The notes beneath the pieces were generated by a model, which worked only from the letters and a program-made list of their open reading frames with translations, was not told the DNA's origin and ran no database searches. A stretch of 64,000 nt of DNA from Candidatus Avigastranaerophilus sp. (GTDB taxonomy: Bacteria; Muiribacteriota; Ozemobacteria; Ozemobacterales; Ozemobacteraceae): contig JAZRWI010000080.1 of NCBI GenBank assembly GCA_045599645.1, forward strand, positions 15,735-79,734, written 5' to 3'. The translations under genes and the position numbers were made by a program. This document shows, piece by piece, positions 7,916-36,310 of this stretch (positions within the stretch are counted from its first letter, which is position 1; the number at the start of each line of letters is the position of its first letter).

Positions 7916-8724
7916 AAATCAGGCTCGAAATATTCATACCATTCTTCCTTCTGATTGGAAAGACCTACTCTCCAAGCTGTTAGAGGACCTAATTCAAGCT
8001 GTTCAAAATCTCTATAGGTTTCGCGCATAATATCATTAGGAAAATGCTTTTTAGCAAATTCAGCCTGAGTTTTATTGTGATCTGCTGCCAGATACAAATC
8101 CCAGGCACCAAAAATATGAAGTATTTCGTGAGCAATATTCTGCGGTGTGAAATCTTCGTATTTTCCATCTTTATACTTGGTGTATAAAATAGCCCAATCA
8201 AGGAATTTACCTTTATCTGCGCCATAATAGCATGGCTGAGAATAACCGGAACCATTTTTGTTCGCCAGGAATATCACAATAAAATTCTGGCAATCAGGAT
8301 TATCAAGCTTTGCCTTTTCTTCGTATGCATACATGTTTTTGTAGCCTAAGGCATTAAAAATCTTTATTCCAACCTGAAAATGCTCGCTATCAGAGCCTGT
8401 TCCGTCATGAATATTATCAATAATTATATCTTCATCTAAGCCTACGAAGCTGTTTTTAAACTCAATTTTATCCGCTTCATATTTATGAGCCTGCTTTTGA
8501 AGCCAATTTTCAGCCATTTCAAGATTAGGAATATACTTCTTCTTATCAGCAGCGTCCCATTTGCTTTCAGATACAAATACTGTCAGGATATGGGTTTTGC
8601 CGGTCAGGGTCTTAGCCATTCCTGTATTTGCTTCTTCATAAAAGCAAGGCTCTGAGAAGCAGATATTTGAATCAAAGGCCATAAAGCAGGCTAAGACCAA
8701 CAAAAAACAATTGATTTTTCCCAT
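7897..8724 (-). CDS. Secreted putative zinc metallopeptidase (HExxH)
   Basis: N-terminal signal peptide and an HEILHIFGAWDLY motif near the C-terminus. The family is not identifiable by eye. Confidence 0.4.
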   Translation of the reverse strand: MGKINCFLLVLACFMAFDSNICFSEPCFYEEANTGMAKTLTGKTHILTVFVSESKWDAADKKKYIPNLEMAENWLQKQAHKYEADKIEFKNSFVGLDEDIIIDNIHDGTGSDSEHFQVGIKIFNALGYKNMYAYEEKAKLDNPDCQNFIVIFLANKNGSGYSQPCYYGADKGKFLDWAILYTKYKDGKYEDFTPQNIAHEILHIFGAWDLYLAADHNKTQAEFAKKHFPNDIMRETYRDFEQLELGPLTAWRVGLSNQKEEWYEYFEPDFYKDRR

Positions 8725-20526: not shown

Positions 20527-20949
20527 ATGTTTGAAAGACTGACTGGGACTGCGACTTTTAACCTTCTCGGCAAGGGTCTTGATGTTGCTGCAAAACGCAA
20601 CGCCGTTATATCCAACAATATCGCTAACGTAAACACTCCCTTATTCAAGCGACAGATTGTTACATTTGAAGATGAAATGGCAAAGGTTTTCGATGGCCAC
20701 GTAGACATTACCGGCCGCAGAGAAGACGACCGCCATATTCCCATAGGCGAAATCGATTACATGAACATTGGTCCTACAACAATCAAAGATCGTATCCATA
20801 TTATGAGAAACGACAAGAACAATGTAGATATCGATGTAGAAATGTCAGATTTGGCCAAGAACACAATGACCTATCAGATTCACGCTAATAGATTGGCTCA
20901 GATGTTTTCACAGCTAAACGATGTTATAAGTAGAGGTGCTAAGTCCTGA
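20527..20949 (+). CDS. flgB: Flagellar basal-body rod protein FlgB
   Basis: N-terminal SNNIANVNTPLFKRQ rod-protein motif, in flagellar operon context. Confidence 0.85.
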   Translation: MFERLTGTATFNLLGKGLDVAAKRNAVISNNIANVNTPLFKRQIVTFEDEMAKVFDGHVDITGRREDDRHIPIGEIDYMNIGPTTIKDRIHIMRNDKNNVDIDVEMSDLAKNTMTYQIHANRLAQMFSQLNDVISRGAKS

Positions 20950-21389
20950 TGAGTATGTTCAGAAGTATTGATATTTCAGCTAGTGGTCTTACAGCAGAAC
21001 GTCTACGCATGGATGTTATTTCAAACAACATCGCTAACGTAAACACTACCAGAACAGCAGACGGTGGTCCTTTCAGAAGAAAGATGGCCATTTTTGAAGC
21101 CCGTCATCATTACGGCCAGCGCGCATACCAGGATAGAATCAATCCTCAGGAACCAGGCCGCGGCGTTAGAGTTAATGCCATTATGGATGATATGACTCCA
21201 TTCAAGCTCGAATACGATCCAAGTCATCCAGATGCTGACCCAGATGGCTATGTAAGAAGACCAAACATTGATATCGTTCACGAAATGGTTGATATGATTA
21301 CAGCCACTCGTGCATACGAAGCCAATGTTACCTGCATCAGTTCTTCTAAGGACATAACCAATGCAGCTCTCAACATCAGTTCCAAGTAA
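20949..21389 (+). CDS. flgC: Flagellar basal-body rod protein FlgC
   Basis: SNNIANVNTTRT motif and C-terminal rod domain TATRAYEAN. Confidence 0.85.
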   Translation: MSMFRSIDISASGLTAERLRMDVISNNIANVNTTRTADGGPFRRKMAIFEARHHYGQRAYQDRINPQEPGRGVRVNAIMDDMTPFKLEYDPSHPDADPDGYVRRPNIDIVHEMVDMITATRAYEANVTCISSSKDITNAALNISSK

Positions 21390-21436
21390 TTAGCAGATAT
21401 TATAGATTATAGATAAAATAAGTTAGGGTAAACAAA

Positions 21437-21739
21437 ATGAGAATTAACGAAAACCATCCGTTGCATGGCGTTTTGAGTGATAAGCCCAGACGACCTTCCA
21501 CCAACGCAAAAGAGCAATGGGGCTCTTTTCTTGATACTTTACAAACCGCTATTGGTGAAGTAGACACTTTGGGCAAAGAATCAGAAAAACTCACACAAGA
21601 CGCAGTATTGGGCAGAGTTGAAAACTTGCATGACGTTATGATTGCTGCCGAAAAGGCTAAGACCGCCATGAACCTCACTATTGAAGTTCGCGGAAAGGTT
21701 TTGGAAGCCTATAAGGAAGTAATGCGCATGAATTTTTAA
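21437..21739 (+). CDS. fliE: Flagellar hook-basal body protein FliE
   Basis: 100 aa with a C-terminal ...VRGKVLEAYKEVMRMNF FliE signature. Confidence 0.8.
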   Translation: MRINENHPLHGVLSDKPRRPSTNAKEQWGSFLDTLQTAIGEVDTLGKESEKLTQDAVLGRVENLHDVMIAAEKAKTAMNLTIEVRGKVLEAYKEVMRMNF

Positions 21740-21861
21740 TTAGGCTCTTTACATATTTAGCTAGGTGTACTATAAATAAATAGATAATATAACAAACAGC
21801 TCCTGTAAAAAAATTATACATAGAACAAATCCACAGGAGTAAATTAGGGAGTGCAAGCAAA

Positions 21862-23760
21862 ATGAACGATTACCTCAGGCAACTGTGGGAACCGATTTCA
21901 AAGCTGACCAAAAAACAGCTCATTATTTTAGGGAGCGTTGTTGGTCTCGTTGTCATCGGCATTATCACAGCCACGATGTGGGGCACAGAAAAAGAGTATG
22001 TTCCTCTTTTCAAGGAACAATTGAAACTGGAAGACGCCAGTAAAATAGACGCTAAGCTTACCGAATTAGGCTTAGACCACAAAATTGGTTCAACCGCCAA
22101 TGAAATACTTGTTCCACTTACAGATAAAAGTAATGTATTGCTCAAGCTTGCCGAAGAAAAACTACTTCCTGAAGCCGATGCCGGTTGGAAGGAACTTGTT
22201 GATAACCGCTCCCTATTTCAAGGCACTACCCAGCAGGAATTCGACCTCAATTTTGTAAGAGGTCTCCAGGTTGAATTAGAAAAAACCTTAAAGAGAATGG
22301 ACCCTATCGAAGATGCAAGGGTCACCATTGTTAAGCCTAAAAAGCAGGTATTTGCAGAAGACCAGAAGGAATCCTCTGCAAGCGTAGTTATTAAGCTTAA
22401 ACCAGGCATGGTTGTAGACCAGAACCAGATCAGAGCTATCAGAGATTTAATCTGCTCTGCAGTTGAAGGACTTGAACCAGGCAATGTTAAGATTTCAGAC
22501 ACAACAGCCAGAGACTTAACCAGAATCATCGAAGATGAAGAATTAATGAGCCTGGATAAAGCCAAAACCATCCAGATGAGACTTACCAGAGACAATGAAA
22601 AGCATCTCAAGGGCAAGCTCCAGAGCATGCTTGAACAGATTCTCGGTGATGGTAAGGCTATTGTAAGCGTAAGTCTTGAAATGGACTTTGACCAGAAGGA
22701 AGCAGTCAGTGACGTAGTAGTTCCTCCAGAAGGTCTGGACCACGGTATTACAATTTCTGAAAAAACAGAAAGCGAACAATACGAAGGCCGCGATTTGATT
22801 GAAGACGGCGAACCAGGCGTAAACTCCAACCTTCCTCCAGGATCACCGGCATACCCTGGAACAGAAAATGGTGTATTAAACAAATACAAGCGTGACGGTG
22901 TAATTAAGAACTATGAAGTCACCAAATCAAAGGAAAAATTCGTTAAAGAGCAGGGCACAATCAAGCGTATGACTGCCTCGGTCATTATTGATGGCGACCC
23001 TGCAGAATATAAATCTATTGAAGACCAGATTCTTGCTATTGCTCAGACCGCCATTGGTTATAACAAACTACGTGGCGATAAAATGACCCTCTTAGTATAT
23101 AAATTCAGAAATGAAGATCTTGAACGCGCAAGACTTGAAATGGAAAATGAGAAGGAGCGGGAAAAACAAATGTTTATGATTATTATGGGACTGCTTTGTG
23201 GCTTCCCAATACTTCTCGGTATCATCTTTATGGTAGCCAGAATATCCAGAATGCGAGCTATGGTTCAAGAACAGAAGCGTCTTGAAGCCGCTGCAGCTGA
23301 AGCTGAAAGAATCCGTAAAGAAAGAGAAAAAGCTCTCCTTGAACAGAATGAACGCCAGTGGAAGGAATATGAACGTCGTTTCAGCGATACTAGAAACTGG
23401 TTCCCGGAAATCAAGGACGAAATGGAAAAGAAACGCAAGGTTCAGGACCTCAAGTTGGAAGCATGCAAATATGCTGCTGAACATGATGGTCTTCCAGCCG
23501 ATTTCGAAGAAATGTGCCCGGAAGAAAAATATGCTTATCGTGAAGCATTCCAGAAGAAGGCAGATGGTAAACTCGAAGACGAAATCAAGAGACTTGAAGA
23601 CATTATTGCTAAGCGCAATGCTGACAGACAGGATGAACTCAATAGTCTTGAAGCAGCTGCTAATGCTCGTGATGCTCTTGAAAAGCGTATCAGAGACCTT
23701 ATTACCGAACAGCCTGAAAATGCAATTCAGGTTATCAAGACCATGATTAACAGCAAATAA
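21862..23760 (+). CDS. fliF: Flagellar M-ring protein FliF (with extended K/E-rich coiled-coil C-terminus)
   Basis: N-terminal TM helix, periplasmic ring domains, a second TM at ~res 440-460, then ~170 aa of charged coiled coil. Confidence 0.85.
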   Translation: MNDYLRQLWEPISKLTKKQLIILGSVVGLVVIGIITATMWGTEKEYVPLFKEQLKLEDASKIDAKLTELGLDHKIGSTANEILVPLTDKSNVLLKLAEEKLLPEADAGWKELVDNRSLFQGTTQQEFDLNFVRGLQVELEKTLKRMDPIEDARVTIVKPKKQVFAEDQKESSASVVIKLKPGMVVDQNQIRAIRDLICSAVEGLEPGNVKISDTTARDLTRIIEDEELMSLDKAKTIQMRLTRDNEKHLKGKLQSMLEQILGDGKAIVSVSLEMDFDQKEAVSDVVVPPEGLDHGITISEKTESEQYEGRDLIEDGEPGVNSNLPPGSPAYPGTENGVLNKYKRDGVIKNYEVTKSKEKFVKEQGTIKRMTASVIIDGDPAEYKSIEDQILAIAQTAIGYNKLRGDKMTLLVYKFRNEDLERARLEMENEKEREKQMFMIIMGLLCGFPILLGIIFMVARISRMRAMVQEQKRLEAAAAEAERIRKEREKALLEQNERQWKEYERRFSDTRNWFPEIKDEMEKKRKVQDLKLEACKYAAEHDGLPADFEEMCPEEKYAYREAFQKKADGKLEDEIKRLEDIIAKRNADRQDELNSLEAAANARDALEKRIRDLITEQPENAIQVIKTMINSK

Positions 23761-23775
23761 TTGGAGCGCATATAA

Positions 23776-24831
23776 ATGAACGAAACTCAGTTGGCAGAAC
23801 AAGCGATAATCAAGCCGGAAGATTATCCACCACTAACTATTCCTGGCAAAGCCAAGGCGGCTATCTTACTTGTTTTCTTAGGTCCTGAAACAAGTGGTCC
23901 TATCATGCAGGCCCTTACAGATCAGGAAATAGAAACAATTACTATTGAAATTGCAAAACAAAGAAAGGTTTCTACAGAAGAAAAGCTTTCTGTTCTGCTT
24001 GAGTTTGAATCATTGTTCATGGCCAGGAAGTTTTATGCTGAAGGTGGTCTCGAAACCGCTAAGCGCTTGCTTGAAAAAACCGTTGGTCCCGGTAAAGCTT
24101 TGGAAATTCTTGCTAAAATGGGTACTTCATTACAGCTCCAACCATTTGAAGCAGCAAGAACTGCCGACCCAAGCCAATTGGCAACCCTTATTCAGAATGA
24201 ACAACCACAGCTTATTGCTATGATTATGGCTTATTTGCAGCCAGAAAAAGCAGCTGTTGTATTGCAGTCCATGGACCACGATACTCAGTTGGAAATAGCT
24301 AAGCGTCTAGCTCTTATGGATAAAACAAGTCCTGAAATCACACGTGAAGTCGAAAACTTCCTGGAAGAAAAGCTTTCTTCTATCGTTGGTCAGGACCTCA
24401 CATCTGTTGGTGGTATCGATACTGTCATCAGAGTATTGAATGCAGTAGACCGTTCTACCGAAAAGAACATCATCGAAACAATGGAAGTTCAGGAACCTGT
24501 TCTTGCCGAAGAAATCAAGAAGAAGATGTTCGTATTCGAAGACGTTGTTCTCATCGACGACCGCGGTTTGCAGCGCCTCTTCAAGGAAATCGACCAGAAA
24601 GACCTTTCTATCGCACTCAAGGGCGTTACAGACGAAGTCAAGGAAAAATTCTACAAGAATATGTCCAAGCGTGCAGCAGAAATGCTCAAGGAAGATATGG
24701 CCTACATGGGCGCAGTTCGTATGCGCGACGTAGACCAGGCTCAGCAGCGTATCGTCCAGTTGGTCAAGAAGCTGGAAGCCAAGGGCGAAATTATTGTAGC
24801 AAGACCAGGCGAGGAGGAAATGATTGGTTAA
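23776..24831 (+). CDS. fliG: Flagellar motor switch protein FliG
   Basis: 351 aa with FliG N/M/C domains and a C-terminal torque helix region (...MRDVDQAQQRIVQLVKKLE...). Confidence 0.85.
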   Translation: MNETQLAEQAIIKPEDYPPLTIPGKAKAAILLVFLGPETSGPIMQALTDQEIETITIEIAKQRKVSTEEKLSVLLEFESLFMARKFYAEGGLETAKRLLEKTVGPGKALEILAKMGTSLQLQPFEAARTADPSQLATLIQNEQPQLIAMIMAYLQPEKAAVVLQSMDHDTQLEIAKRLALMDKTSPEITREVENFLEEKLSSIVGQDLTSVGGIDTVIRVLNAVDRSTEKNIIETMEVQEPVLAEEIKKKMFVFEDVVLIDDRGLQRLFKEIDQKDLSIALKGVTDEVKEKFYKNMSKRAAEMLKEDMAYMGAVRMRDVDQAQQRIVQLVKKLEAKGEIIVARPGEEEMIG

Positions 24832-25273
24832 CCGAACTAGAAAAACGAATATCCTTGCAGATATTCTACAATTTTGTGATACAGAAACTCAGACCCGTCT
24901 GGTTACAGGCCTTACCCCAATTCTGAAAAAAGAAAACCGCTTAGATATTCTTCAGGAATTGAAAAACAAGATAGTTCTTTTTGAAGATTTGGCTTATGCC
25001 AATAGCTCAGGCGTAGCCATGCTTCTTAAGTATGTTACAATCCAGGACCTTGCCATGGCTTTTCATGGTGCCCCAGATGCTGTTGTAACCAATATAGCCC
25101 AGTCAATGTCCAAAAATATGTTCAGTGACCTCAAGGAAGAAATTGCTCTTCGCAAAAAAGCCACTAAGACAGACATTAACAATGCAAGAGAAAGAATACT
25201 TAAAGAAGTAAGACAGCTTATCAGTGAAAATCGTCTCTATATTGAAAAACCTGACGAAACCATGATTTATTAA
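24824..25273 (+). CDS. Stand-alone FliG C-terminal-domain-like protein (FliG_C paralog), apparent TTG start overlapping fliG stop
   Basis: IVLFEDLAYANSSGVAMLLKYVTIQDLAMAFHGAPDAVVTNIAQSMSKNMFSDLKEEIALRKKATKTDINNARERILKEVRQL aligns by eye with FliG MFVFEDVVLIDDRGLQRLFKEIDQKDLSIALKGVTDEVKEKFYKNMSKRAAEMLKEDMAYMGAVRMRDVDQAQQRIVQLVKKL. Confidence 0.5.
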   Translation: MVNRTRKTNILADILQFCDTETQTRLVTGLTPILKKENRLDILQELKNKIVLFEDLAYANSSGVAMLLKYVTIQDLAMAFHGAPDAVVTNIAQSMSKNMFSDLKEEIALRKKATKTDINNARERILKEVRQLISENRLYIEKPDETMIY

Positions 25274-25288
25274 AGGTAAAGCCAAGAC

Positions 25289-26419
25289 ATGTTTAGAATA
25301 TTAAAAGCCAGCCAAGTAAAAGCAGTCGAAAATCCATTTTCCGTTGACAATGGTCAAAAGGTTGAAAAACCTAAGGAACCGGATATCGACCCAAATGAAG
25401 ATGCTTTTGCTTCAGAAGCTTTTCAATTACTTTCTGGCGAAGAATTAGCCGGTGGACAAAAGATTTCAACAAAGAAACCCGCTAATCAGGCTCCAGATTC
25501 AAATCAAGCAGAATCAGACGCTTCAGCTGCACCTGAAGAAAAAACACCACCCAGGAAAGATGATGATTCTTTTCTTTCCCAGGCTGCAAGAAAATCAAGA
25601 CATGCCGCAGTTCTTGAAAAGCTTAAAATCAAAGAGCTTGAATTAGAAGCCCTTGAAGAAGAGCTTAGAGAATGGGAAGCACGTCTACAGCAGCAGGAAA
25701 GTGAATTATTACAGAAAGAACAGGAACTTTCCAAAGCTAATATTGAAAAGCGCCAGCAGATTGAAGCCGAATGTCAGCAAACCTTGAAAATGGCTAAGGA
25801 AGCAGCTGAATCAGTAAAAGCCGCTGCCAGGAATGAAGCTGAAACAATCAAAAAACAAGCTAAGATTGAAGTTGATTCAGTTAGAGAAAGCGCTTATAAA
25901 GAAGGCTTCGATTCAGGCGAAGAAAAAGGTCTTGCCCAAGGCGAAGCTGAAGGCCTGAAGGAAATAGAAATCGACTGGAAGAATATGATGAACGAATCAG
26001 AAATGATAGTCAATGAGCTTCAATCCAGCCGTATGGGTCTATTAAAAGCCTCAGAAGAAGAAATGCTCAGACTTGTAATAAGCTTTGCCAAGACTGTTCT
26101 TAAGGTTGAACCAACAGTTAACCAGGAAATCATCCTGAAAAACATTGATGAAGCCCTTAACAATATTATTGACGTTGATAAGGTTGTCATGCGCATAAAC
26201 CTTCGCGATAAAGCAATGTGCGAAGCTCACAAGGAAAGACTTCTTTCAAGACTTGGTAATATTTCAGAACTTCGCATAGTAGAAGACCCAAGCCTTAGCG
26301 CAGGTGGTGTAAAAATTGAAACTGGTGTAGGCACTATTGACGCAACTCTTGAAACTCAGGCAAGAGCCTTAGAAAGAGCTCTTTTAAACAAATTTGAAAG
26401 TTCAATGACTGGTTCATAA
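25289..26419 (+). CDS. fliH: Flagellar export apparatus protein FliH (long Pro/Ala/Glu-rich N-terminal extension)
   Basis: C-terminal FliH domain ending ...GGVKIETGVGTIDATLETQARALERAL, with coiled-coil middle. Positioned between fliG and fliI. Confidence 0.7.
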   Translation: MFRILKASQVKAVENPFSVDNGQKVEKPKEPDIDPNEDAFASEAFQLLSGEELAGGQKISTKKPANQAPDSNQAESDASAAPEEKTPPRKDDDSFLSQAARKSRHAAVLEKLKIKELELEALEEELREWEARLQQQESELLQKEQELSKANIEKRQQIEAECQQTLKMAKEAAESVKAAARNEAETIKKQAKIEVDSVRESAYKEGFDSGEEKGLAQGEAEGLKEIEIDWKNMMNESEMIVNELQSSRMGLLKASEEEMLRLVISFAKTVLKVEPTVNQEIILKNIDEALNNIIDVDKVVMRINLRDKAMCEAHKERLLSRLGNISELRIVEDPSLSAGGVKIETGVGTIDATLETQARALERALLNKFESSMTGS

Positions 26420-26421
26420 TC

Positions 26422-27735
26422 ATGGGTTTTGCTTTTTCTGACTATACAAACGTTATTGAAAATACAAATACAATCAGGGTTAACGGCCGCGTCACCCAGG
26501 TTGTAGGTCTCCTTATTGAAGCAACAGGCCCACAGAATCCAGTAGGTGACGTCTGCAATATCATAACTCCTAATGGTCCTCTTCCCTGTGAAATCGTAGG
26601 CTTCAGAAAAGATAGTGTTCTTTTAATGCCTTTGATTCATACAGAAGGAATCAGAAAAGGAGCAGAAGTAGTTCCTACAGGCCAGCCTTTAACCGCTCCG
26701 GCCGGTGATGAACTGCTTGGCAGATTATTGGACGGTTTAGGTAATCCAATTGACGAAAAGGGCGAATTTTCAGCCAGCATCCATAGAGTTCCACTTAACC
26801 GTGAACCACCTAACCCATTTACAAGAAAAAGAATTCTTGAACCAATGCCAACAGGTGTTAAGGTTCTTGACGGACTTCTTACCATAGGTAACGGCCAGAG
26901 ACTTGGTATTTTTGCAGGCTCTGGTGTTGGTAAAAGTACTTTACTAGGCATGATAAGCCGAACATCTAAGGCTGATGTAAACGTTCTAGCACTCATAGGT
27001 GAACGTGGTCGTGAAGTCAGAGAATTTTTGGAAAAAGACCTTGGGCCGGAAGGCATGAAGCGTTCCGTTATCGTTGTTGCAACATCTGACCAGCCTGCAC
27101 TCGTTAGAATTAAAGCTGCTTTTACAGCTACAGCTATCGCAGAATATTTCAGAGATCAGGGCAAAAACGTAATGCTGATGATGGATTCAGTAACTCGTTT
27201 TGCATTGGCACAGCGCGAAGTTGGTCTTGCAACCGGTGAACCACCTGCCACACGTGGTTACACCCCATCTGTTTTTGCTATGCTTCCAAAGCTGCTAGAA
27301 CGAGCAGGGACATCTCTCAAAGGTGCTATCACAGGCATTTATACAGTTCTTGTAGAAGGCGGTGACATGGACGAACCAGTTGCCGACGCCGTAAGAGGTA
27401 TTCTTGACGGTCACCTTATTCTCAGCCGTGACCTTGCTCATCAGAACATTTATCCTGCAATTGATATTCTGAGCAGTATTTCACGTCTTATGAACGAAAT
27501 AGCAGATAAGAATCATCTCGCCAATGCTGGTAAGCTGCGCAACATATATTCAACCTATATGAAAAATGTTGACGCCATTACACTTGGTGCTTATAAAGCT
27601 GGTTCTGACCCACGTATTGACGAAGCAATCAAAAAACAGCCTCTTATCGAAGCTTTTATAAAACAAGGAATTAACGAAGCTTGTCCATTCGAAGCCTCTG
27701 TTGCTGAAATAGCAAAAATAGCAGGCGGAAAGTGA
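26422..27735 (+). CDS. fliI: Flagellum-specific ATP synthase FliI
   Basis: Walker A GSGVGKST, Walker B MLMMDSVTRF. Overall F1/T3SS ATPase pattern. Confidence 0.9.
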   Translation: MGFAFSDYTNVIENTNTIRVNGRVTQVVGLLIEATGPQNPVGDVCNIITPNGPLPCEIVGFRKDSVLLMPLIHTEGIRKGAEVVPTGQPLTAPAGDELLGRLLDGLGNPIDEKGEFSASIHRVPLNREPPNPFTRKRILEPMPTGVKVLDGLLTIGNGQRLGIFAGSGVGKSTLLGMISRTSKADVNVLALIGERGREVREFLEKDLGPEGMKRSVIVVATSDQPALVRIKAAFTATAIAEYFRDQGKNVMLMMDSVTRFALAQREVGLATGEPPATRGYTPSVFAMLPKLLERAGTSLKGAITGIYTVLVEGGDMDEPVADAVRGILDGHLILSRDLAHQNIYPAIDILSSISRLMNEIADKNHLANAGKLRNIYSTYMKNVDAITLGAYKAGSDPRIDEAIKKQPLIEAFIKQGINEACPFEASVAEIAKIAGGK

Positions 27736-27744
27736 TAATCTGAA

Positions 27745-28197
27745 ATGGCATTTGAATTCAAATTGCGTCAGCTATTGCAGATAGCACTTCATGAAGAAAA
27801 TGAAGTGAAAAATCGTCTTGCCAAAAAAGACGCTCAAATAGCTGAGCTTGCAACTAAAATTCAAAGCTTTAAGGATCAGCAGACTCAGGCGCTTGCTGAG
27901 CAGCAGCAGGCAATGTTTTCCGGAGACCTGATGAAGGTTCAGATGTATCCGCCTTACATACAGTCATTGAAAAAATCAGAAGATTTTTACACCAATGAAA
28001 TGCAGCTTCAGCAGAAGCAACGTGCAAAGATAATGGCCGAATACGTTGAAAAGCAACGAAAACGAAAAACCTTCGAAAAGATGGAGGAAGTTGACAGAGC
28101 CAAATACATTAAGCAGATGCAGAAAAAGGAACAGGCCAGATTAGACGAATTTGGTGGAAGAAAAAGAAATACATTAATGGAGCCAGACAATGCTTGA
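27745..28197 (+). CDS. fliJ: Flagellar export protein FliJ (coiled-coil)
   Basis: 150-aa all-helical charged protein directly after fliI. Confidence 0.6.
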   Translation: MAFEFKLRQLLQIALHEENEVKNRLAKKDAQIAELATKIQSFKDQQTQALAEQQQAMFSGDLMKVQMYPPYIQSLKKSEDFYTNEMQLQQKQRAKIMAEYVEKQRKRKTFEKMEEVDRAKYIKQMQKKEQARLDEFGGRKRNTLMEPDNA

Positions 28198-28774
28198 AAA
28201 TATGAACAGACTTCTCGAAAAGATGGACGCTCTTAACAAGAGCCTCAGCATCTATGCCCCAAAGCATAATAGAAAAGCCAACAATGTTGATTTTCAAGCT
28301 CAGCTTGAAAAAGCCCAGAAAGGTCAGAATCTTTCATCCTGTTCACCGGCCACCACTGTAGAGAACGCTAATGATGTCCAATTCGCCAAGAATCTTAATG
28401 AAGAAGTTCAAGGTCTCATCGAAAAGTATTCAAAGGAATACAACGTTGACCCAGACCTCGTAAAGCAACTTATAACAGTAGCCTCAGGGAATAATCCCCA
28501 AGCTGTTGGCTCTAATGGTAACGTTGGCCTTATGCAGCTCAATCCATCTCTTTTAAGCACATATGGTATAACCAATCCATTTGATCCGGCCCAGAACATT
28601 TCCGCAGGAACTCAGCATCTTTCACAGTTGCTACAGAACAACAACGGAAACCTGCCGTTAGCTCTTGCCTCCTATAATACTGATCCATTAACAGTTAAGC
28701 GATTTGGTGGCGTTCCACCATACTTAGAAACCCAGAACTTTGTTAACCAGATTTTATCTGGCTTAGGCAAATAA
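28190..28774 (+). CDS. SLT (lytic transglycosylase) domain protein, flagellar operon-embedded; expected catalytic Glu appears replaced by Ala
   Basis: SLT-family motifs GNVGLMQLNP and ALASYNTDPLTVKRFGGVPPYLETQNFVNQIL. Position equivalent to the ES motif reads VASGNNP. 8-nt overlap with fliJ. Confidence 0.55.
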   Translation: MLENMNRLLEKMDALNKSLSIYAPKHNRKANNVDFQAQLEKAQKGQNLSSCSPATTVENANDVQFAKNLNEEVQGLIEKYSKEYNVDPDLVKQLITVASGNNPQAVGSNGNVGLMQLNPSLLSTYGITNPFDPAQNISAGTQHLSQLLQNNNGNLPLALASYNTDPLTVKRFGGVPPYLETQNFVNQILSGLGK

Positions 28775-28790: not shown

Positions 28791-29726
28791 ATGCCTGATA
28801 ATAGACCCGACAACAAACCGGCTAACAATAAACAAGCAGAAGAAACTCAGCAATATAACGAAGAAGAACTGAATACTCCCGAAACACGGGAAGAACAGCA
28901 GGAAAGCTATAGAGAACCTTCCCCACTATTCAAGTTCTTCAGTACCATCTTCTATATTTTTTTACTTATCGCTGTAGGTATTGCATTAGTATTATTGCTC
29001 TTTTCTCTTGATTTTCTTAATATTTATACCTTCAGAAACAGCATTCCTGAATCTCTTAGAAAAGGCTGGCCTCTGGAAGCCTATTATGAATTCGTAAAGC
29101 TTCATCAGCTCCCTGAAGAAGAACGATATCAGCAGATGATGCATATAGAAAAAGACCGTTATAATCAGCTAATGAGCGACGGGAACAAGAGTCTTGAAGA
29201 CCGTGCAAAGGCTTTGGAAGAATCCTACAGAGCCTTAATCAGAACACAGAAAGAACAAAATAAATTAGACCAGGAAGCTATCCGTAAGAAACAGGAAGAG
29301 CTTGCACTGCAACAAAAAAAGCTTGAAGACAGTCTGGCTGACCTTGAAAAACGTAAGGCCGCTATTGATGATTTATCTAACCGTCTGGCTTCTGAAGCCA
29401 TGAATATAGAATCAAGCCTTATCAGATTTATGGAAAAAGAAAATAGACTTGATCAGGTTTGTGCAATTGCTGCTCAAATGGAACCCAAAGCTCTTGCCAG
29501 AGTATTTGACGAAGTTCCTGATGACCAGTTGATTTATGACATCATGGGCGGACTTCAGCCAAGTCATTCAGCAAAAACACTTGCCAATATGGACCCTGAA
29601 AAAGCAGGTAAGATTATGAAAATAAGCAACAATGCTCTGACATTACCTCCTCCAGGTCCATCAAGAAGCTATGTTCCTCAGTCTCTCACCAATCTGATAG
29701 ACGAAACTCAAGCCAATCGAAGATAA
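28791..29726 (+). CDS. MgtE-N/FliG-like domain flagellar protein (YlxF/MotE-like) with N-terminal TM helix and coiled coil
   Basis: C-terminal LDQVCAIAAQMEPKALARVFDEVPDDQLIYDIMGGLQPSHSAKTLANMDPEKAGKIMKI resembles the MgtE intracellular N domain. Its position after fliJ matches Bacillus ylxF. Confidence 0.5.
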   Translation: MPDNRPDNKPANNKQAEETQQYNEEELNTPETREEQQESYREPSPLFKFFSTIFYIFLLIAVGIALVLLLFSLDFLNIYTFRNSIPESLRKGWPLEAYYEFVKLHQLPEEERYQQMMHIEKDRYNQLMSDGNKSLEDRAKALEESYRALIRTQKEQNKLDQEAIRKKQEELALQQKKLEDSLADLEKRKAAIDDLSNRLASEAMNIESSLIRFMEKENRLDQVCAIAAQMEPKALARVFDEVPDDQLIYDIMGGLQPSHSAKTLANMDPEKAGKIMKISNNALTLPPPGPSRSYVPQSLTNLIDETQANRR

Positions 29727-29740
29727 TACAACGTAAATAA

Positions 29741-29772
29741 AAAGCCCTGGCTAATTGCCAGGGCTTTTTATT
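29741..29772. terminator. Bidirectional rho-independent terminator (AAAAAGCCCTGGCTAATTGCCAGGGCTTTTTAT) closing the flagellar operon and the convergent minus-strand lipoprotein operon
   Basis: Perfect GC-rich stem GCCCTGGC/GCCAGGGC, flanked by an A-run on one side and a T-run on the other. Confidence 0.8.
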
Positions 29773-29786
29773 TACGTTGTATTTGC

Positions 29787-30376: not shown

Positions 30377-32347
30377 TTATTCAGCACCATAAGCGCCAAT
30401 CTGGCCTTTATTTGAAGCTACATCAAGAAGTGGTGACCCGCTCTGCAGATGATAATCATATACATTCCCAATTTTTCCTTCGAACATTGGATCGACATTA
30501 TGTATCGGTGCACCGCTCTGAGTGCAATTGACTGTAGCTGTCTTAAAACCAAAAATATTATTATATGGGAAAGCAATACCGGAAGAATACATGTCTTCAA
30601 TACCATTACCGCTTCCGCTACTAGCCATATTCACAATAATGTTATTCTGGACTTTTGCGTCCATAGCTCCTTCAAGCTGAATTCCGTTAAGGGCATCAAT
30701 AGTCAGAAACTGTGCATCACAATTATCACCGCTTATTTCAAGACCCTTGGCAAGAGAATTGATAACACCGTTTCTTATTCTTGTATCAGCCTTGTCAAAA
30801 GCCTGAACTCCAGCCTTTTTGCAATTTCTAACATCAAAATAATTAAGTGTCAGACCTGTGTTGTTATTAAGAATAATGCCTACATCACAGCCTTCAGCCT
30901 TTACATCTGAAATATTACAATAATATGTATTTTCTACATTTATACCTGTTTCACAATCTTCTGTATAAATTCCAGAAATAGCTGTTCCACTAGCTGTAAT
31001 CAATGCAAAACCGGTTTTACAATATCTGGCTTTTACATTATCAATTTTCAGGTTACTGCTATAAAGCTTAAGCCCTGTATTTGCACCTGATATAACAACA
31101 TTACTGAACAAGCTTTCGTTTTCACCTATTCCAGCCATGAATCTTATGCCATCCCAGTCATTGTTCTGAGGTGTTGAGGACTGTGAAAGGAATTGAATTG
31201 GTTCTGCTTCGGTGCCACGGGCAATAATAACTCCTTCAACTACGAATTCACAGAGACTGTTTTTAAAAGTGTTATCCTTATTGCCATCAGTAAAGAATCT
31301 GATGCTAGTGCCAGGTTCAATAGTCAAAGTATATCTTGAAGGAATCGTAATATCACCACCCAAACTAATCGGGCTCCATTCCTTTTTCCAGACAATATCT
31401 TCATGGATTGTTCCTGTAGGAACAAAGCTTCTTACAGCAGGCAATTCAGAGAGATTACCTTCATAATCTACTGCATAAAGATTATAGGTATAATAGCGGC
31501 CTGGAGAAACCAGATCGTCAACAACAGACAACTGGCTGCTGAACATGTCGTTTTCATCTCTTAAAAGAGCGAGCTTTCCACCGTTTTCACTGCGATAAAT
31601 TCTAAATCCCCTGATTGGATCCGCACCGGCATATTGCCAAGAGAGCTGAGGACCATATATCGTCTGAGTAATATTGAAATCAATAGGAGTATCTGGCGCC
31701 CCTTCGATATCATACATGCTTACAGTCTTAAAGCTTGACTGTTCTGTAGTAAAGGTGCGGCCGTCAGATGTAGTTCCTGTTACAGAAAAATAATAGGTTG
31801 AATCAGGATAAAGATTATTAAGTGTAATTCTATGCTGAGTAGCTTTTGCATCTGGTGTTGTAGTGCTTGGCATATTGCTTAATTCGCGATATGTAACCGA
31901 AACACTCATTTCTTCATGACAATTAATATCAAGAACAACACTTGTTTTTTCCTTTACTGCAACATTAGCCTTTATCATCTTTTCCATGCTATCAACAACG
32001 ATTGTAACGTCATTAATAACCTGACCATACCCTAATTCTATTGTTGCAGAGCCAAGATAAAATCCGTCACGTTCGACTGTTAAATTATGATGTCCTTCAT
32101 CTAATGAAGTAAACATGAAACGGCCCATTTCATCTGTTTCAGCTTTGTAAAGAGAACGATTTGATGTAATTATTGCTCCGGAGACAGCTAGTTTATTAGA
32201 ATCAATAACAATGCCAGATACGCTGCCACGCTGAGTATCAAGAACATGATCCTCGTCTCTTACACAGCCAACAGTGAAAATAATAAATAAGGAAACAACG
32301 AATATGAGTATGTTTCTTATCCAAAGCTTAGTATTTTCGTTTCTCAT
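30377..32347 (-). CDS. Surface lipoprotein paralog 1: CarboxypepD_reg-like + FN3-like + right-handed parallel beta-helix repeats
   Basis: Lipobox FTVGC. N-terminal SGIVIDSNKLAVSGAIITSN (carboxypeptidase-regulatory-like beta-sandwich), then multiple PbH1-type repeats. Conserved C-terminal DP.F...Y.Y.L...SP motif shared with the two paralogs. Confidence 0.55.
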   Translation of the reverse strand: MRNENTKLWIRNILIFVVSLFIIFTVGCVRDEDHVLDTQRGSVSGIVIDSNKLAVSGAIITSNRSLYKAETDEMGRFMFTSLDEGHHNLTVERDGFYLGSATIELGYGQVINDVTIVVDSMEKMIKANVAVKEKTSVVLDINCHEEMSVSVTYRELSNMPSTTTPDAKATQHRITLNNLYPDSTYYFSVTGTTSDGRTFTTEQSSFKTVSMYDIEGAPDTPIDFNITQTIYGPQLSWQYAGADPIRGFRIYRSENGGKLALLRDENDMFSSQLSVVDDLVSPGRYYTYNLYAVDYEGNLSELPAVRSFVPTGTIHEDIVWKKEWSPISLGGDITIPSRYTLTIEPGTSIRFFTDGNKDNTFKNSLCEFVVEGVIIARGTEAEPIQFLSQSSTPQNNDWDGIRFMAGIGENESLFSNVVISGANTGLKLYSSNLKIDNVKARYCKTGFALITASGTAISGIYTEDCETGINVENTYYCNISDVKAEGCDVGIILNNNTGLTLNYFDVRNCKKAGVQAFDKADTRIRNGVINSLAKGLEISGDNCDAQFLTIDALNGIQLEGAMDAKVQNNIIVNMASSGSGNGIEDMYSSGIAFPYNNIFGFKTATVNCTQSGAPIHNVDPMFEGKIGNVYDYHLQSGSPLLDVASNKGQIGAYGAE

Positions 32348-34323
32348 TTCCTTGTTACCCCATATCTACCAAGTTCAAGTCCGAATTCATCGTTTATACG
32401 GCAGAGAGAAGATTCACTAAGATTGTAATCATATGGACTTCCACCGACAAAAGCTGGATCCAGAGCCACTGATAATGTTCCAACATCGCAGCCATAAACA
32501 GCATTCGCAAAGCCATAAATATCGTTATAGCAGTAGGTTGGATACTGGCTTTCATTCATATATGCAATACCAGTTGCACCGGCATTGGAGGTATTAGTGA
32601 AAATATTGTTAGTCAGGTAGAGAGAACCAGTAGCAATAATCAAGGCTCTATCAGCATCAACAGTAACATGGTCTATTATATTGCCACCATCATTCCTGAG
32701 GATATTAGTGTAATTGATACCTTCTGGACTGACTACGAGGGTATTTGTAATAATGCTATTTGCAAAGGTTCCTCTTATACCCGTATTGTATGCATAAATA
32801 TCTGTATTACGGATGAATGTCTGGTCATAAATGCTATCTGTGAAGTTTTCAAGACCAACAGAGGTATTTGTTATTCTTGAATTCTTCAAAGTCATATGGA
32901 AACATTTATTGATTGAAACTGCTACTGATGAAATATCATCAAAATAACAATTTTCAAGTTCAACAGCCTGAGTTACCCCTTCAAAGCGTAAGCCGCCAAC
33001 GGAATGCTTAACAGTAATGCCACTTACAGCAACATTTACAGATTTAACATTAATAGTATAGCCACTGCAGCCAAAAATTTCTGCATTCCTGATAGCTGAA
33101 ATACCTGTCTGAGAAGAAAGAATTGTAATTCCAGCCCAGTGTTCACGTTTACCTGAACCATCAAGAGGACTGAAAATAACCGGTTCAGCTTCTGTGCCAT
33201 TAACAGTGAGTGAGCCATGAACCAGTATTTCTACTCTATCTGTATCAAAGCCAGATTTGAAGGAATCATTTTCGCTGATCTGGAATTCTGTTCCAGCTTC
33301 AACAGTCATATTGACACCCATGGGAACAATAAGGTCTGCTGTTATCTTTACAGGAGAATCCAGTTTACTTATGTTAATATCGTTCTTAACTACGCCAGGA
33401 ACGAAAACTAAGTCAGAGACCATCTTATCAGATTCAGCACCTACATTGTTTACAGCAGTAACTGCATAACGGCAGAAAACACCTGTTTCTGCTTCCACAT
33501 CGCTGTAACTGCAACCCTTAGTAATAACTGTTCCGTTGCAACGAACCCAGGCACCGCCCTTTTTCTGGCGATAAACATTATAGCCTGCAACAGAAAGCTT
33601 TGTTTCAGGAGCAGTCCAGGTCAAAGGCACTACACCAAGCTCAGTCATATCTGCTATCTTTATAGAAGATGGCTTATATGGCGCTTCGCCACTGGCAGTT
33701 CTAAAAGTATAATCGAAGGAAGAATAACTATTAGAAAATTCATCAAGATATTGAATCTTGAAATGATATACAGTTTCTGGGGTTAGACCGGTTAAGAGGT
33801 AATAATGTATTTTATTTGGGCGTTCTTCTGCAACATAGCTACCATAGCTCATATCTTTGCCATAATGGATGTTACAGCAGATATCCTTGTAGGTCTGCCA
33901 ATTAATTTCAACAGTAGTTGATGAAACCTGGCCAATAACAACTTTAGAAATTCTGTTACTGGCGCTCAAGCGGTCTAATCGGATAAAATCAACTTTTGTT
34001 TCCTGATCAGATTTTACTTCAGACTGATACTGTTCAAGCGCAAAATCGCTGTGCTGAATAATAATATTATTAAGGCCAGCAGGGAGTTCTGGCAGTCTGA
34101 AAGAACCGTCCAGACCGGAATAAACAATCTGGTCATCTGCAAACAGAGAAAAACATTTTGCATTAATTACTGCGTCGCCTTTTTCATCGATTAATCTGCT
34201 GCTAAAGCTGCCAGTATTGGACTGACGGCTTCCACAGCCTGTAAGCAGAGCAGTTAATAGCAAAACTGCCAGCAAAAAAGCTGGCACTATTTTCCTTCTG
34301 TCAATTTGGAACATCTTCTGCAC
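32344..34323 (-). CDS. Surface lipoprotein paralog 2 (same architecture)
   Basis: Lipobox LLTGC. 4-nt overlap with paralog 1. Beta-helix repeats and C-terminal DPAFVGGSPYDYNLSESS. Confidence 0.55.
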   Translation of the reverse strand: MQKMFQIDRRKIVPAFLLAVLLLTALLTGCGSRQSNTGSFSSRLIDEKGDAVINAKCFSLFADDQIVYSGLDGSFRLPELPAGLNNIIIQHSDFALEQYQSEVKSDQETKVDFIRLDRLSASNRISKVVIGQVSSTTVEINWQTYKDICCNIHYGKDMSYGSYVAEERPNKIHYYLLTGLTPETVYHFKIQYLDEFSNSYSSFDYTFRTASGEAPYKPSSIKIADMTELGVVPLTWTAPETKLSVAGYNVYRQKKGGAWVRCNGTVITKGCSYSDVEAETGVFCRYAVTAVNNVGAESDKMVSDLVFVPGVVKNDINISKLDSPVKITADLIVPMGVNMTVEAGTEFQISENDSFKSGFDTDRVEILVHGSLTVNGTEAEPVIFSPLDGSGKREHWAGITILSSQTGISAIRNAEIFGCSGYTINVKSVNVAVSGITVKHSVGGLRFEGVTQAVELENCYFDDISSVAVSINKCFHMTLKNSRITNTSVGLENFTDSIYDQTFIRNTDIYAYNTGIRGTFANSIITNTLVVSPEGINYTNILRNDGGNIIDHVTVDADRALIIATGSLYLTNNIFTNTSNAGATGIAYMNESQYPTYCYNDIYGFANAVYGCDVGTLSVALDPAFVGGSPYDYNLSESSLCRINDEFGLELGRYGVTRK

Positions 34324-36310
34324 CTATGTCTTCACCAGAATCATAACCAGCCTTTTTCAAAGTGCTGCCTGATTTTGGAGTGTAGCTGAAATTAGAATCT
34401 GTTAAAGCATCTATAAATGGGTCACCGCCAGTTAAAGCCGGCCCTGAAGATGAACTAAATGCCAGGTCACCACTTACAGCTAATGCATTTCCAGAGGAAT
34501 TGCCATACTTCATAGCTGGAACAGTCTGATTCCAAACACCATTATTCTGAATAGAGATATCAGTAGATGAAGTATTATTGCTTACATAAAGCAGACCCAT
34601 GCTATTGCGGTTTTTATCAGCCAACATGAGATTGCTTCTGATAAATGTCTTTGCAGTATCTTTTACCTGAATACAAAGAGGTGCCTGAATAGTATTTCTG
34701 CGGATTTCATCAAAACCGTTGCAAACGATACCTATTCCGCCAGTTCCCCACCCTATTGTATTGCGGTAAACCATAGAAGCAGAATTGTTAGCATTAACTT
34801 CAATAGCGGTAATTACATTAGCCTTGATTTTATTACCAGTAATCTGGTTCAGTTCATTATTCATAGCTCTAATGGCATATGAACAACCACTGAAGGTATT
34901 ATCTGAAATTTTAATAACAGCATTGCTATCACTTATATCAATACCAGTAATACAAGAAACAAAGCTATTGTTATCTATTTCAATATCATTTTCTGATTTA
35001 TTTGCATATATAGCAGCATCAGAGCAGTTGCTAAACCAGCATCCACTGATTTTTGGCAAACCATTTTCACCAACAACACCCTTTTCTGCAAATTGTATCT
35101 TTAAGCCTTCAAGAGATGATGCAGACAGGTCTGCAGATTCTTTGAAGGTAATACCTTCCCAGTCACCATTCTCTGGAACTGCTTCTGCCGATGTAATACA
35201 GACTGGCTGACTTTCAGTTCCCTGAACAAGCAAAGTACCAAGAACAGTTATACCAACCTTGTCTATTCCAACTCCGTCTGCATCCCACTTATCGATACCT
35301 GCAGCACGGATTTCTGTGCCTTTTGCAATAATAAGGCTTGCACCCTGAGCAATGATTAAATCCCCAGTGAGTTCATAAGGTGATCCCTGAGGATTCCAAA
35401 CAACGTTAGTATTTATTGTTCCAGGCATAACCATTGATACAACGGCAGAAGGTGAACTTTCATCGCCACTGCCTGCAATTCTGGTTACTCTATAAAAATA
35501 TTTTTCACCAACCTTAATACCCATATCAACATATGAAGCCTGCTGAACAATACCTGTGTTTATTTTTTCAAATACACCATCAATGCTGGAAGAACGATAA
35601 ACATTAAAGCCTGCAAAATCAGCACTCGCATCTGCATTCCAAGCAAGAGAAAAAGCTGAATTTCCATAATTTTTTGAAATGGTCAGGCCTGTTGGAGGTT
35701 CACTTCTAGCTGCTACAGAGGTTGTAAAGGTTTTAACTTCTGAAGTAAGAGCTCTGTTAAACTTATCTGTTCCTAGACACTGGAATACATATGTAGTAGA
35801 TGGAACAAGACCAGTAAGCTCAAAAATGTGAGTATATTTCTTAGCTGAACTGCTTGGCAATACCTTATCCATCTGGGAATTACTGCCATAAGCAATCTTG
35901 GTATCAGCTTCAAATTTTGTTTTAAAGCTGATGGTAGCCTTTGTTGAAGTAACTTCAGAGACAACTATGTCATATATTTCGCCTGCTGACGGAAGCTGGA
36001 ATGTGATATTTTCGACAATCATACCACTCTGAACTTCGTAGCTCTTTGATTGACTCTGATAATTTTCCTTGCTGGCTACAAATTCATATATCTGTGGTTC
36101 TAAGTCTTCAATATTCCACTTACCATAGTAGTCAGTAACAGCACTACGGCCGCCAACTGATACAACAGCTCCACTTAAAGCCTTAGCGTTTGTATCTAAT
36201 ACGATACCGCTGGCCCCACCCGAAGCAGCATCGTTGGAACCCATGCAGCCAATCAGGCTCATGACGGAAAATACAAGGATAAAAATTGTCATCAATCTAA
36301 AGTTTTTCAT
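34301..36310 (-). CDS. Surface lipoprotein paralog 3 (same architecture)
   Basis: Lipobox SLIGC, SGIVLDTNAKALSGAVVSVGG, beta-helix repeats. 23-nt overlap with paralog 2. Confidence 0.55.
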   Translation of the reverse strand: MKNFRLMTIFILVFSVMSLIGCMGSNDAASGGASGIVLDTNAKALSGAVVSVGGRSAVTDYYGKWNIEDLEPQIYEFVASKENYQSQSKSYEVQSGMIVENITFQLPSAGEIYDIVVSEVTSTKATISFKTKFEADTKIAYGSNSQMDKVLPSSSAKKYTHIFELTGLVPSTTYVFQCLGTDKFNRALTSEVKTFTTSVAARSEPPTGLTISKNYGNSAFSLAWNADASADFAGFNVYRSSSIDGVFEKINTGIVQQASYVDMGIKVGEKYFYRVTRIAGSGDESSPSAVVSMVMPGTINTNVVWNPQGSPYELTGDLIIAQGASLIIAKGTEIRAAGIDKWDADGVGIDKVGITVLGTLLVQGTESQPVCITSAEAVPENGDWEGITFKESADLSASSLEGLKIQFAEKGVVGENGLPKISGCWFSNCSDAAIYANKSENDIEIDNNSFVSCITGIDISDSNAVIKISDNTFSGCSYAIRAMNNELNQITGNKIKANVITAIEVNANNSASMVYRNTIGWGTGGIGIVCNGFDEIRRNTIQAPLCIQVKDTAKTFIRSNLMLADKNRNSMGLLYVSNNTSSTDISIQNNGVWNQTVPAMKYGNSSGNALAVSGDLAFSSSSGPALTGGDPFIDALTDSNFSYTPKSGSTLKKAGYDSGEDIGAEDVPN

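Follow-up and report, generated by a model that had tools for sequence, protein, structure and literature searches.

A family-1 lytic transglycosylase-fold protein with alanine at the catalytic position, encoded next to fliJ in a flagellar operon

The window analysed here, a 64,000-nucleotide stretch of contig JAZRWI010000080.1 (positions 15,735 to 79,734) from the Candidatus Avigastranaerophilus sp. assembly GCA_045599645.1, contains an operon running from flgB to beyond fliJ, the penultimate gene of which encodes a 194-residue protein of the SLT fold. At the position of the catalytic glutamate of family-1 lytic transglycosylases (LTs) this protein, referred to below as SLT-Ala, has an alanine. 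The gene starts with ATG, and this start shares 8 nt (ATGCTTGA) with the 3′ end of fliJ. A GGAG Shine–Dalgarno sequence lies inside the 3′ end of fliJ, 7 nt upstream of the ATG, which together with the overlap indicates that translation of SLT-Ala is coupled to that of fliJ. The two genes also overlap at other loci, by 8 nt in L001, L005 and L006 and by 4 nt in L003. Met5 (position 28202) was considered as an alternative start and rejected, as the spacing of the GGAG fits Met1 and the sequence M1-L2-E3-N4-M5 is invariant. The preliminary description of the locus had reported a 194-residue open reading frame (ORF) overlapping fliJ by 8 nt, and the start codon, the ribosome-binding site (RBS) and the profile matches of fliJ all bear this out.

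The order xerC-(hslVU)-flgB-flgC-fliE-fliF-fliG-FliG_C-only-fliH-fliI-fliJ-SLT-transmembrane protein is kept in orthologous loci down to 51% identity, and SLT-Ala is encoded as a dedicated part of the operon for the flagellar export apparatus. A dedicated flagellar peptidoglycan (PG)-remodelling factor had been proposed at this position. The conserved synteny upholds the dedication to the flagellum, but the term PG-remodelling is unjustified if the protein is inactive.

SLT-Ala matches Pfam SLT (PF01464) over residues 76–171 with an E value of 5.3e-21 (74.8 bits; cut-off 21.3). An AlphaFold2 model calculated with 49 close orthologues only was poor (predicted local distance difference test score, pLDDT, of 54); the model used instead, calculated with a diverse alignment of 107 sequences, has a pLDDT of 81 overall and of more than 90 over residues 70–190. 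A Foldseek comparison of this model with the PDB returned only family-1 LTs (Pseudomonas aeruginosa Slt, MltC, MltE, MltF, MltD and Slt70) with a probability of 1.0, the best entries having an r.m.s.d. of 2.3–3.9 Å. The protein thus has a bona fide SLT/family-1 LT fold, as the motifs recognized in the preliminary description had suggested. The globular domain is preceded by an amphipathic N-terminal helix, a second short helix and a variable, low-confidence linker that extends to about residue 60 (pLDDT of less than 50 for residues 47–56).

The helix that spans residues 88–99 in the model of SLT-Ala is the one whose C-terminal end bears the catalytic Glu in LTs (PMC5951611). Ala98 of SLT-Ala aligns with Glu64 of MltE, Glu478 of Slt70 and Glu580 of BB0259, and the pair Ala98-Ser99 stands opposite Glu64-Ser65 of MltE and Glu478-Ser479 of Slt70. 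In the alignment of MltE 'AIESGGNPNAVS' with SLT-Ala 'TVASGNNPQAVG' the alanine falls exactly opposite Glu64. The remaining motifs are in register: Slt70 'rqESawnpkvkS..GasGLMQ' and 'AAYNAGPGRV' align with SLT-Ala 'vASgnnpeavg..GelGLmq' and 'aaYntdpatv', and LtgA 'PFSETRDYVKKV' aligns with 'Pfadtqnfvsqi', within which LtgA 'SETRDYV' corresponds to 'adtqnfv'. The substitution of Glu by Ala in a VASG sequence had been read from the window at the outset, together with the caveat that a wrong offset might conceal a Glu elsewhere; the alignments show that the offset was right.

The loss is not confined to this residue. The side chains of Glu64, Ser73 and Tyr192, together with Ser75, were chosen as the catalytic site of MltE in a combined quantum-mechanics/molecular-mechanics study (PMC5841429), and Glu64, Ser73 and Tyr192 have been mutated individually for crystallography (PDB entries 6ghy, 6gi3 and 6ghz). 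The entries 6ghy (MltE E64Q) and 6fc4 (P. aeruginosa Slt E503Q) are labelled 'inactive mutant'. Of the features of a family-1 LT enzyme, SLT-Ala retains the GLMQ sequence of motif II and lacks the Glu of motif I, the Ser of the AVS sequence, the AYNAG sequence of motif III and the Tyr of motif IV. In motif III the Tyr and Asn are kept and Asp165, located between helices 155–163 and 166–172, is the sole candidate for a substitute acid. Two other acidic residues were examined as substitute catalysts and discarded for want of specific evidence: Asp132 belongs to a generic 'NPFDP' motif of active SLTs, and Asp72 sits in the helix before the SLT core. No second SLT gene was found in the window or in the 20 kb orthologous locus L001.

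A protein database search gave 78 full-length orthologues of SLT-Ala with 46–99% identity, the named ones of which are from Candidatus Riflebacteria/Rifleibacteriota. All 78 have (V/I/T)-Ala-Ser at the catalytic position, whereas the 26 nonorthologous SLT matches from the same search all have Glu-Ser. Different lineages encode Ala98 by different codons (GCC in the window and in L001, GCA in L003 and GCT in L005), and the GCC of the window is at least two substitutions away from GAA or GAG, which excludes a single-base sequencing error. Compared with the 78%-identical orthologue in L005, the proportions of nonsynonymous (pN) and synonymous (pS) differences are 0.134 and 0.709, respectively, the latter being saturated; pN/pS is ∼0.19 and the nominal Jukes–Cantor-corrected dN/dS is ∼0.07. 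In this comparison SLT-Ala is better conserved than FliH or FliJ from the same operon, and residues 1–22 are under tighter constraint (pN of 0.037) than the protein as a whole. The alignment of the orthologues has 30 invariant columns, and M1, L2, E3, N4, M5 and L15 show no or almost no variation. SLT-Ala is under strong purifying selection.

A search of 1.84 billion representative proteins with a profile of this clade gave many matches of 185–210 residues, aligned from residue 1 onwards, in which the catalytic Glu is present (Glu-type proteins). A second search, with a Glu-type profile, gave 114 new top matches, those with names being from Spirochaetota, Armatimonadota and Melainabacteria. 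The Glu-type proteins consist of an N-terminal helix with the pattern M(L/I)E(N/S/D)M..R(I/V)xE(I/L)xxxF, a short F..L helix, a variable linker and an intact SLT domain; the N-terminal helix is common to them and the Ala clade. The catalytic Glu, the Ser of AVS, LMP and AYNAG are intact in all of the 114 top members, and the Tyr of motif IV is present in 113 of them. The genes adjoin fliJ or rod genes in Spirochaetota, Armatimonadota, Chloroflexota, Synergistota and Melainabacteria (Table 1). A scan of genomes was dominated by generic SLT matches (Bacillaceae and Acidobacteriota) and added six loci with fliI, and in five cases fliJ, directly 5′ of the SLT gene. At the spirochaete locus L004 the Glu-type gene occupies the same slot after fliJ as in the window and is likewise followed by an FlbB gene and the end of the operon. 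SLT-Ala is the positional orthologue of this flagellar LT family, the members of which are predicted to be active. It shares with them the operon slot, the N-terminal helices, the length and the lack of a Sec signal, and as the intact catalytic set (Glu, Ser, Ala-Gly and Tyr) is missing it is a degenerate offshoot rather than a typical member. The family is annotated solely as 'lytic transglycosylase domain-containing protein', and a literature search found no paper describing fliJ-adjacent signal-less SLT proteins, which is not proof of absence.

One protein of unusual architecture was encountered among these sequences. P0134 (320 residues; from a 2 kb JGI contig) combines, in one ORF, a FliJ domain with the Glu-type N-terminal helix and SLT domain (Pfam FliJ, 8e-8; SLT, 3.9e-27), and may be either a Rosetta-stone hint of an interaction between FliJ and the SLT protein or the product of a missed stop codon.

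The two groups differ in the catalytic site. Glu is found at position 98 in 114/114 Glu-type sequences and Ala in 78/78 sequences of the Ala clade. Position 107 is Ser in every Glu-type sequence versus Gly in 61, Asp in 11 and Ser in four of the 78 Ala-clade members, and position 118 is Met in all 114 versus Lys (37), Asn (33) or Gln (six). The Ala-Gly pair at positions 164–165 (114/114) is replaced by Thr or Ser at 164 (78/78) and Asp at 165 (77/78), and Tyr184 (113/114) is replaced by Phe (78/78). Less strictly, Tyr143 in 75 of the 114 corresponds to His in 67 of the 78, and Glu180 (109/114) to Asp (46), Glu (15) or Ser (15). In the Ala clade the G, L and M of GLMQ are conserved in all 78 members and the Q in 76, and Ser99, Tyr162 (78/78), Asn163 (66/78), Thr181 and the hydrophobic core are also kept. 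The charge and pI ranges of the SLT domain overlap between the two types.

In a neighbour-joining tree of the SLT domain the Ala clade is monophyletic with a long stem and has the Glu-type protein P0111 as its sister. The domain is short and the tree mixes flagellar Glu-type and generic SLT sequences, and it was used solely for the monophyly of the Ala clade. P0111 (locus L006, 4308–4937), the nearest Glu-type sequence, keeps Glu-Ser, AVS, LMP and AYNAGP, and its gene lies in an operon slot identical to that in Riflebacteria, with the FliG_C-only gene and the 8 nt overlap with fliJ. Motif IV of P0111 already has Phe (ETQQFV), which suggests that this Tyr was replaced before the Glu was lost. 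The tree and the alignments point to a single ancient loss of Glu in the Riflebacteria lineage.

The route by which such a protein could reach its site of action was assessed with a hydropathy scan, a crude proxy for a Sec signal or a transmembrane (TM) segment. SLT-Ala has no hydrophobic stretch, the maximum 15-residue Kyte–Doolittle mean being 0.62. A 15-residue window above 1.8 within the first 60 residues was found in 0/78 Ala-type and 0/114 Glu-type sequences and in 17/26 generic SLT matches. The whole family, Ala-type and Glu-type, is thus without a Sec signal. The sequence 'L-S-S-C' (residues 47–51) was considered as a lipobox and rejected, as no hydrophobic region precedes it and only the closest relatives have the Cys. 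Because Glu-type members keep a complete catalytic site, they must reach PG. The lack of a Sec signal, the location in export-apparatus and rod operons and the need to reach PG suggest export by the flagellar type III secretion system (fT3SS), as for FlgJ, and SLT-Ala is probably exported in this way.

The loss of the acid, of the helper residues and of the constraint on two further cleft positions (M118 and E180) is the signature of a pseudo-enzyme rather than of a relocated acid. The reading that we favour, with somewhat better than even confidence, is that SLT-Ala is a pseudo-enzyme which derives from a dedicated flagellar LT, has been kept for a catalysis-independent role in the flagellum and is exported through the fT3SS. 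The ancestor would have been a flagellar LT of ∼190–200 residues with the two-helix N-terminal module, a variable linker, an SLT domain with all of the catalytic residues and no Sec signal. One ancient event in the Riflebacteria lineage would have removed the Glu, and with it the Ser of AVS, the Gly of AYNAG and the Tyr of motif IV would have been lost, while the fold, GLMQ, Tyr162/Asn163 and the N-terminal module would have stayed under strong purifying selection. SLT-Ala would be made in stoichiometric coupling with FliJ and leave through the flagellar type III apparatus, via its N-terminal module, as an early (rod-stage) substrate. Once in the periplasm it may act without cleaving glycan, by docking on or marking PG, the rod or the neighbouring FlbB-like protein, or as a PG or rod spacing factor; alternatively, it may recruit or regulate a housekeeping hydrolase in the manner of degenerate LytM factors or of the scaffold role of FlgJ. 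Precedents make a role of this kind plausible: the catalysis of Salmonella FlgJ is reported to be dispensable for assembly, degenerate LytM factors are kept without their catalytic residues and tandem-SLT proteins (described below) contain Glu-less copies.

Several points weigh against this reading. All of the evidence on the activity, binding and secretion of SLT-Ala comes from sequence analysis, and export through the fT3SS is deduced from the lack of a signal and the operon position. With several cleft residues changed (S107, M118, H143 and F184), glycan binding may not have been retained, and the partner could be a protein. Asp165, a clade-specific and nearly invariant acid in the motif III loop, may be a substitute acid. 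The corresponding alternative, that SLT-Ala is still an active PG glycosidase or transglycosylase with a relocated acid, most likely Asp165 in the remodelled motif III (AYN-T-D), draws on the occurrence of this residue in 77/78 members of the Ala clade against Gly in all Glu-type sequences, which indicates that it arose together with the loss of Glu. Motif III lines the active-site region of family-1 LTs, the ES, GLMQ and AYNAG motifs of which are quoted in PMC8517470. In addition, 'migrated' catalytic residues have been described for pseudo-enzymes in general (PMC10211241), and a second, noncanonical active site has been proposed for the phiKZ transglycosylase gp144 (PMC5406664). However, the canonical helpers (the equivalents of Ser73 and Tyr192 of MltE) have been lost as well, and two more cleft positions that are otherwise invariant are now variable, which indicates relaxed catalytic constraint rather than re-optimization. 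Asp165 also precedes helix 166–172 within an (S/T)-D-P sequence of the sort that commonly caps helix N-termini, so that a structural explanation is sufficient. No family-1 LT is known in which an Asp at this site serves as the acid, which counts further against a relocated acid, and we regard this alternative as improbable. An inactive scaffold and an enzyme with a noncanonical acid had both been put forward in the preliminary description; the replacement of the Ser, Gly and Tyr in addition to the Glu favours the former.

It is also conceivable, although unlikely in our view, that SLT-Ala is retained in the cytoplasm, where it would assist the export gate by binding, for example, FliJ, FliI or FlhA through its N-terminal helices, with the SLT fold serving as a protein–protein scaffold. 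A cytoplasmic role would be consistent with the lack of a signal peptide or TM segment, with the translational coupling to fliJ in all of the lineages examined, with the many changes in the sugar cleft and with the FliJ–SLT fusion ORF P0134. This fusion is the sole example, though, and on a 2 kb metagenome contig a missed stop codon may explain it. Moreover, the Glu-type orthologues, which share the N-terminal module and likewise lack a signal, keep their catalytic residues (114/114); this makes sense only if the family reaches PG. Conservation of the module is just as high in the Ala clade, where GLMQ and Tyr162/Asn163 also remain. A decaying relic, or an Ala produced by assembly or sequencing error, might have been suspected from the missing catalytic residue and the long stem of the clade, but is refuted and can be given next to no probability: the Ala is common to 78 independent metagenome and genome sequences and is encoded by three different codons, the frame is intact, the start and RBS are conserved, and SLT-Ala, at the pN/pS and dN/dS values given above, is more conserved than FliH and FliJ. 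Ala98 is not a sequencing or assembly error and SLT-Ala is not the product of a pseudogene.

Beyond the pseudo-enzyme reading, we tentatively raise a broader one, which is possible rather than probable: that the signal-less SLT proteins encoded next to fliJ or rod genes are unrecognized, phylum-spanning PG enzymes exported by the fT3SS, and that the Riflebacteria form ('dSLT', by analogy with the dLytM factors) is a natural dead mutant with an essential catalysis-independent role in the rod or collar. The family would then be the LT counterpart of the hydrolase domain of FlgJ, and the dead form would act in PG docking, in rod capping or in the recruitment or activation of a housekeeping hydrolase. 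If this is true, the strict conservation of the dead version would show that there is an essential catalysis-independent role in rod/collar assembly.

Among known systems, BB0259 of Borrelia burgdorferi (LTase-Bb; NF047373) resembles SLT-Ala in having a flagellum-dedicated family-1 SLT domain, and NF047373 is the best NCBIfam match for both SLT-Ala and its Glu-type relatives. BB0259 is much longer (∼705–717 residues; profile length 705, SLT domain 559–717), requires a Sec signal for function and loses function on the E580Q mutation, with the same phenotype as deletion (PMC8517470). SLT-Ala scores 38.1 bits against NF047373 (cut-off 234), matches the SLT part only, has no Sec signal and has Ala at the position of Glu580. 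SltF of Rhodobacter sphaeroides and PleA of Caulobacter are, like SLT-Ala, separate LT-fold proteins that are dedicated to the flagellum and encoded in a flagellar operon, in bacteria in which FlgJ lacks the hydrolase domain (PMC7277832; PMC13584718). SltF is an active enzyme, exported by the Sec route and subject to modulation by rod proteins (PMC7277832), whereas SLT-Ala has neither a signal peptide nor the catalytic Glu. Salmonella FlgJ, a rod cap with a GH73 glucosaminidase, offers a PG-directed domain that is delivered by the fT3SS without a Sec signal, as predicted for SLT-Ala, but its catalytic fold is unrelated. SLT-Ala had been likened to the rod-binding N-domain of FlgJ; this holds as an analogy only, as SLT-Ala has no Rod-binding (PF10135) or GH73 match (Pfam; E ≤ 0.01) and the precomputed Pfam assignments of its relatives list SLT families only.

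Pseudo-enzymes derived from glycosidases include α-lactalbumin and the chi-lectins. The degenerate LytM factors EnvC, NlpD, ActS and DipM have a hydrolase fold, have lost the catalytic residues and are kept as regulators or binders (PMC12772221; PMC10336132). Their fold is that of a metallopeptidase, whereas SLT-Ala is lysozyme-like and has no known partner enzyme. Glu-less SLT domains also occur in tandem-SLT proteins (P0105, P0108, P0110, P0113, P0114, P0116, P0118, P0121 and P0153), in which one Glu-Ser copy is combined with one or two Glu-less copies (VAS, KS, QS or CS) that usually also have Phe for Tyr in motif IV. There the active copy is in the same polypeptide, whereas SLT-Ala is a stand-alone dead copy; dead SLT domains may be a recurrent module. 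P0105 (736 residues; L008, 6001–8211), the sole one with its neighbourhood examined, is encoded beside flgK, flgM, an FlhB-C-like gene and a PilZ gene. A literature search for catalytically inactive SLT proteins or flagellar pseudo-LTs found only the degenerate LytM examples, which is not proof of absence.

SLT-Ala is a degenerate SLT protein derived from a flagellar LT and does not represent a new principle. It comes to light while the passage of the flagellar rod through PG is under re-examination: Salmonella strains with catalytically defective FlgJ have recently been reported to assemble flagella all the same, and B. subtilis manages without a dedicated hydrolase (PMC13584718). A phylum-level clade in which a flagellar LT has stayed under strong selection despite having lost Glu, Ser and Tyr is a natural experiment; with the active form encoded at the equivalent place of the operon in sister lineages and distant phyla, it provides a matched active/inactive pair for the study of a nonenzymatic function. 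The analysis also brings to light a widespread family of flagellar LTs without Sec signals. Among the few pseudo-enzymes derived from cell-wall hydrolases, hitherto mostly degenerate LytM domains, SLT-Ala is an example with the SLT fold.

Table 1. Features of the flagellar operon and of SLT-Ala in the window, and gene orders at loci encoding Glu-type relatives
Feature	Position	Strand	Description and basis
XerC-like recombinase gene	19506-20411	+	Upstream of flgB
Upstream operon block, flgB to fliI	20527-27735	+	
flgB	20527-20949	+	Pfam scan
flgC	20949-21389	+	Pfam scan
fliE	21437-21739	+	ORF; assignment as in text
fliF	21862-23760	+	Pfam scan
fliG	23776-24831	+	Pfam scan
FliG_C-only paralogue	24824-25273	+	Pfam scan
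fliH	25289-26419	+	Pfam scan
fliI	26422-27735	+	Pfam scan
fliJ	27745-28197	+	Upstream of the SLT-Ala gene, overlapping; Pfam FliJ 1.2e-11, TIGR02473 2e-16
GGAG Shine-Dalgarno sequence	28179-28182	+	Read directly
SLT-Ala gene	28190-28774	+	ORF and Pfam SLT
N-terminal amphipathic helix	28196-28249	+	Residues 3-20, MLENMNRLLEKMDALNKSL; AlphaFold2; candidate export/docking module
Second short helix	28292-28318	+	Residues 35-43, F35 invariant; AlphaFold2
SLT/goose-lysozyme-like domain	28397-28765	+	Residues 70-192; AlphaFold2 pLDDT >90; Foldseek; profile matches Slt70, LtgA, MltE
Motif I, Ala98 codon	28481-28483	+	V97-A98-S99-G100, codon GCC; C-terminal end of helix 88-99 (AlphaFold2)
Gly107 codon	28508-28510	+	GGC; at the conserved Ser of AVS (MltE Ser73)
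Motif II	28526-28537	+	G113-L-M-Q116, retained
Motif III region, Y162-N-T-D165-P	28673-28687	+	A160-S-Y162-N163-T164-D165-P166; canonical Ala-Gly replaced by (T/S)-Asp
Motif IV	28727-28744	+	E180-T-Q-N-F184-V185; Tyr replaced by Phe184, position 180 no longer constrained
Bitopic membrane protein gene	28791-29726	+	311 residues, last operon gene; TM segment at about residues 52-73, coiled coil
Intrinsic terminator	29732-29776		Strong, bidirectional; closes the operon; 20 bp stem AAAAAGCCCTGGC...GCCAGGGCTTTTT
Three tandem paralogues	30377-36310	-	∼660 residues each
L002, relatives named Armatimonadota			fliI-fliJ-SLT-fliK-flgD-flgE-motAB
L004, spirochaete			fliI-fliJ-SLT-FlbB-end
L007, Melainabacteria			SLT-flgF-flgG-flgA-flgH-flgI-FlgJ (Rod-binding only)-flgN-flgK
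L009, Spirochaetes			fliI-fliJ-SLT
L011, Synergistaceae			fliI-fliJ-SLT
L056, Anaerolinea			fliI-fliJ-SLT
L060, Anaerolineae			fliI-fliJ-SLT
L023, Thermomicrobiales			Short contig; FliI and FliJ profile matches just 5′ of the SLT gene; less clean fit
L085, Bellilinea			fliI match 5′ of the SLT gene, no FliJ profile match; less clean fit

The other genes of the locus are listed in Table 1. The fliE gene of the window was taken from its ORF only, the Pfam FliE assignment having been made on the equivalent genes of L001 and L005. The product of the last operon gene has weak FlbB/YlxF-like similarity (NCBIfam collar_FlbB, 1.4e-4, below the cut-off). In L004 the corresponding slot (7607–8209) encodes a bona fide FlbB collar protein with 164 bits against a cut-off of 110, and the pairing of SLT and FlbB at the end of the operon is common to different phyla, with the similarity to FlbB being weak in the window.

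The FliG_C-only gene between fliG and fliH overlaps the fliG stop codon and encodes a protein of 149 residues (Pfam FliG_C, 2.5e-17). It is present in L001, L003 and L005 and in the Glu-type sister locus L006 and is absent from the spirochaete and Armatimonadota-like loci. The gene evolves faster than its neighbours (pN of 0.32 versus L005), and its product may be a second torque-helix or stator-interface subunit.

At the upstream end of the operon, hslV and hslU lie between the XerC-like gene and flgB in L001 (1–2365), while the window and L005 have no hslVU at this position. The order in L001 corresponds to codV-clpQ-clpY-...-flgB, the arrangement in B. subtilis and Borrelia. On the other side, the three tandem paralogues, which converge on the flagellar operon, combine CarboxypepD_reg and fn3 domains with a right-handed β-helix (NosD-like). 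A trio of this kind also follows the operon in L005, and one copy lies near the operon in L001.

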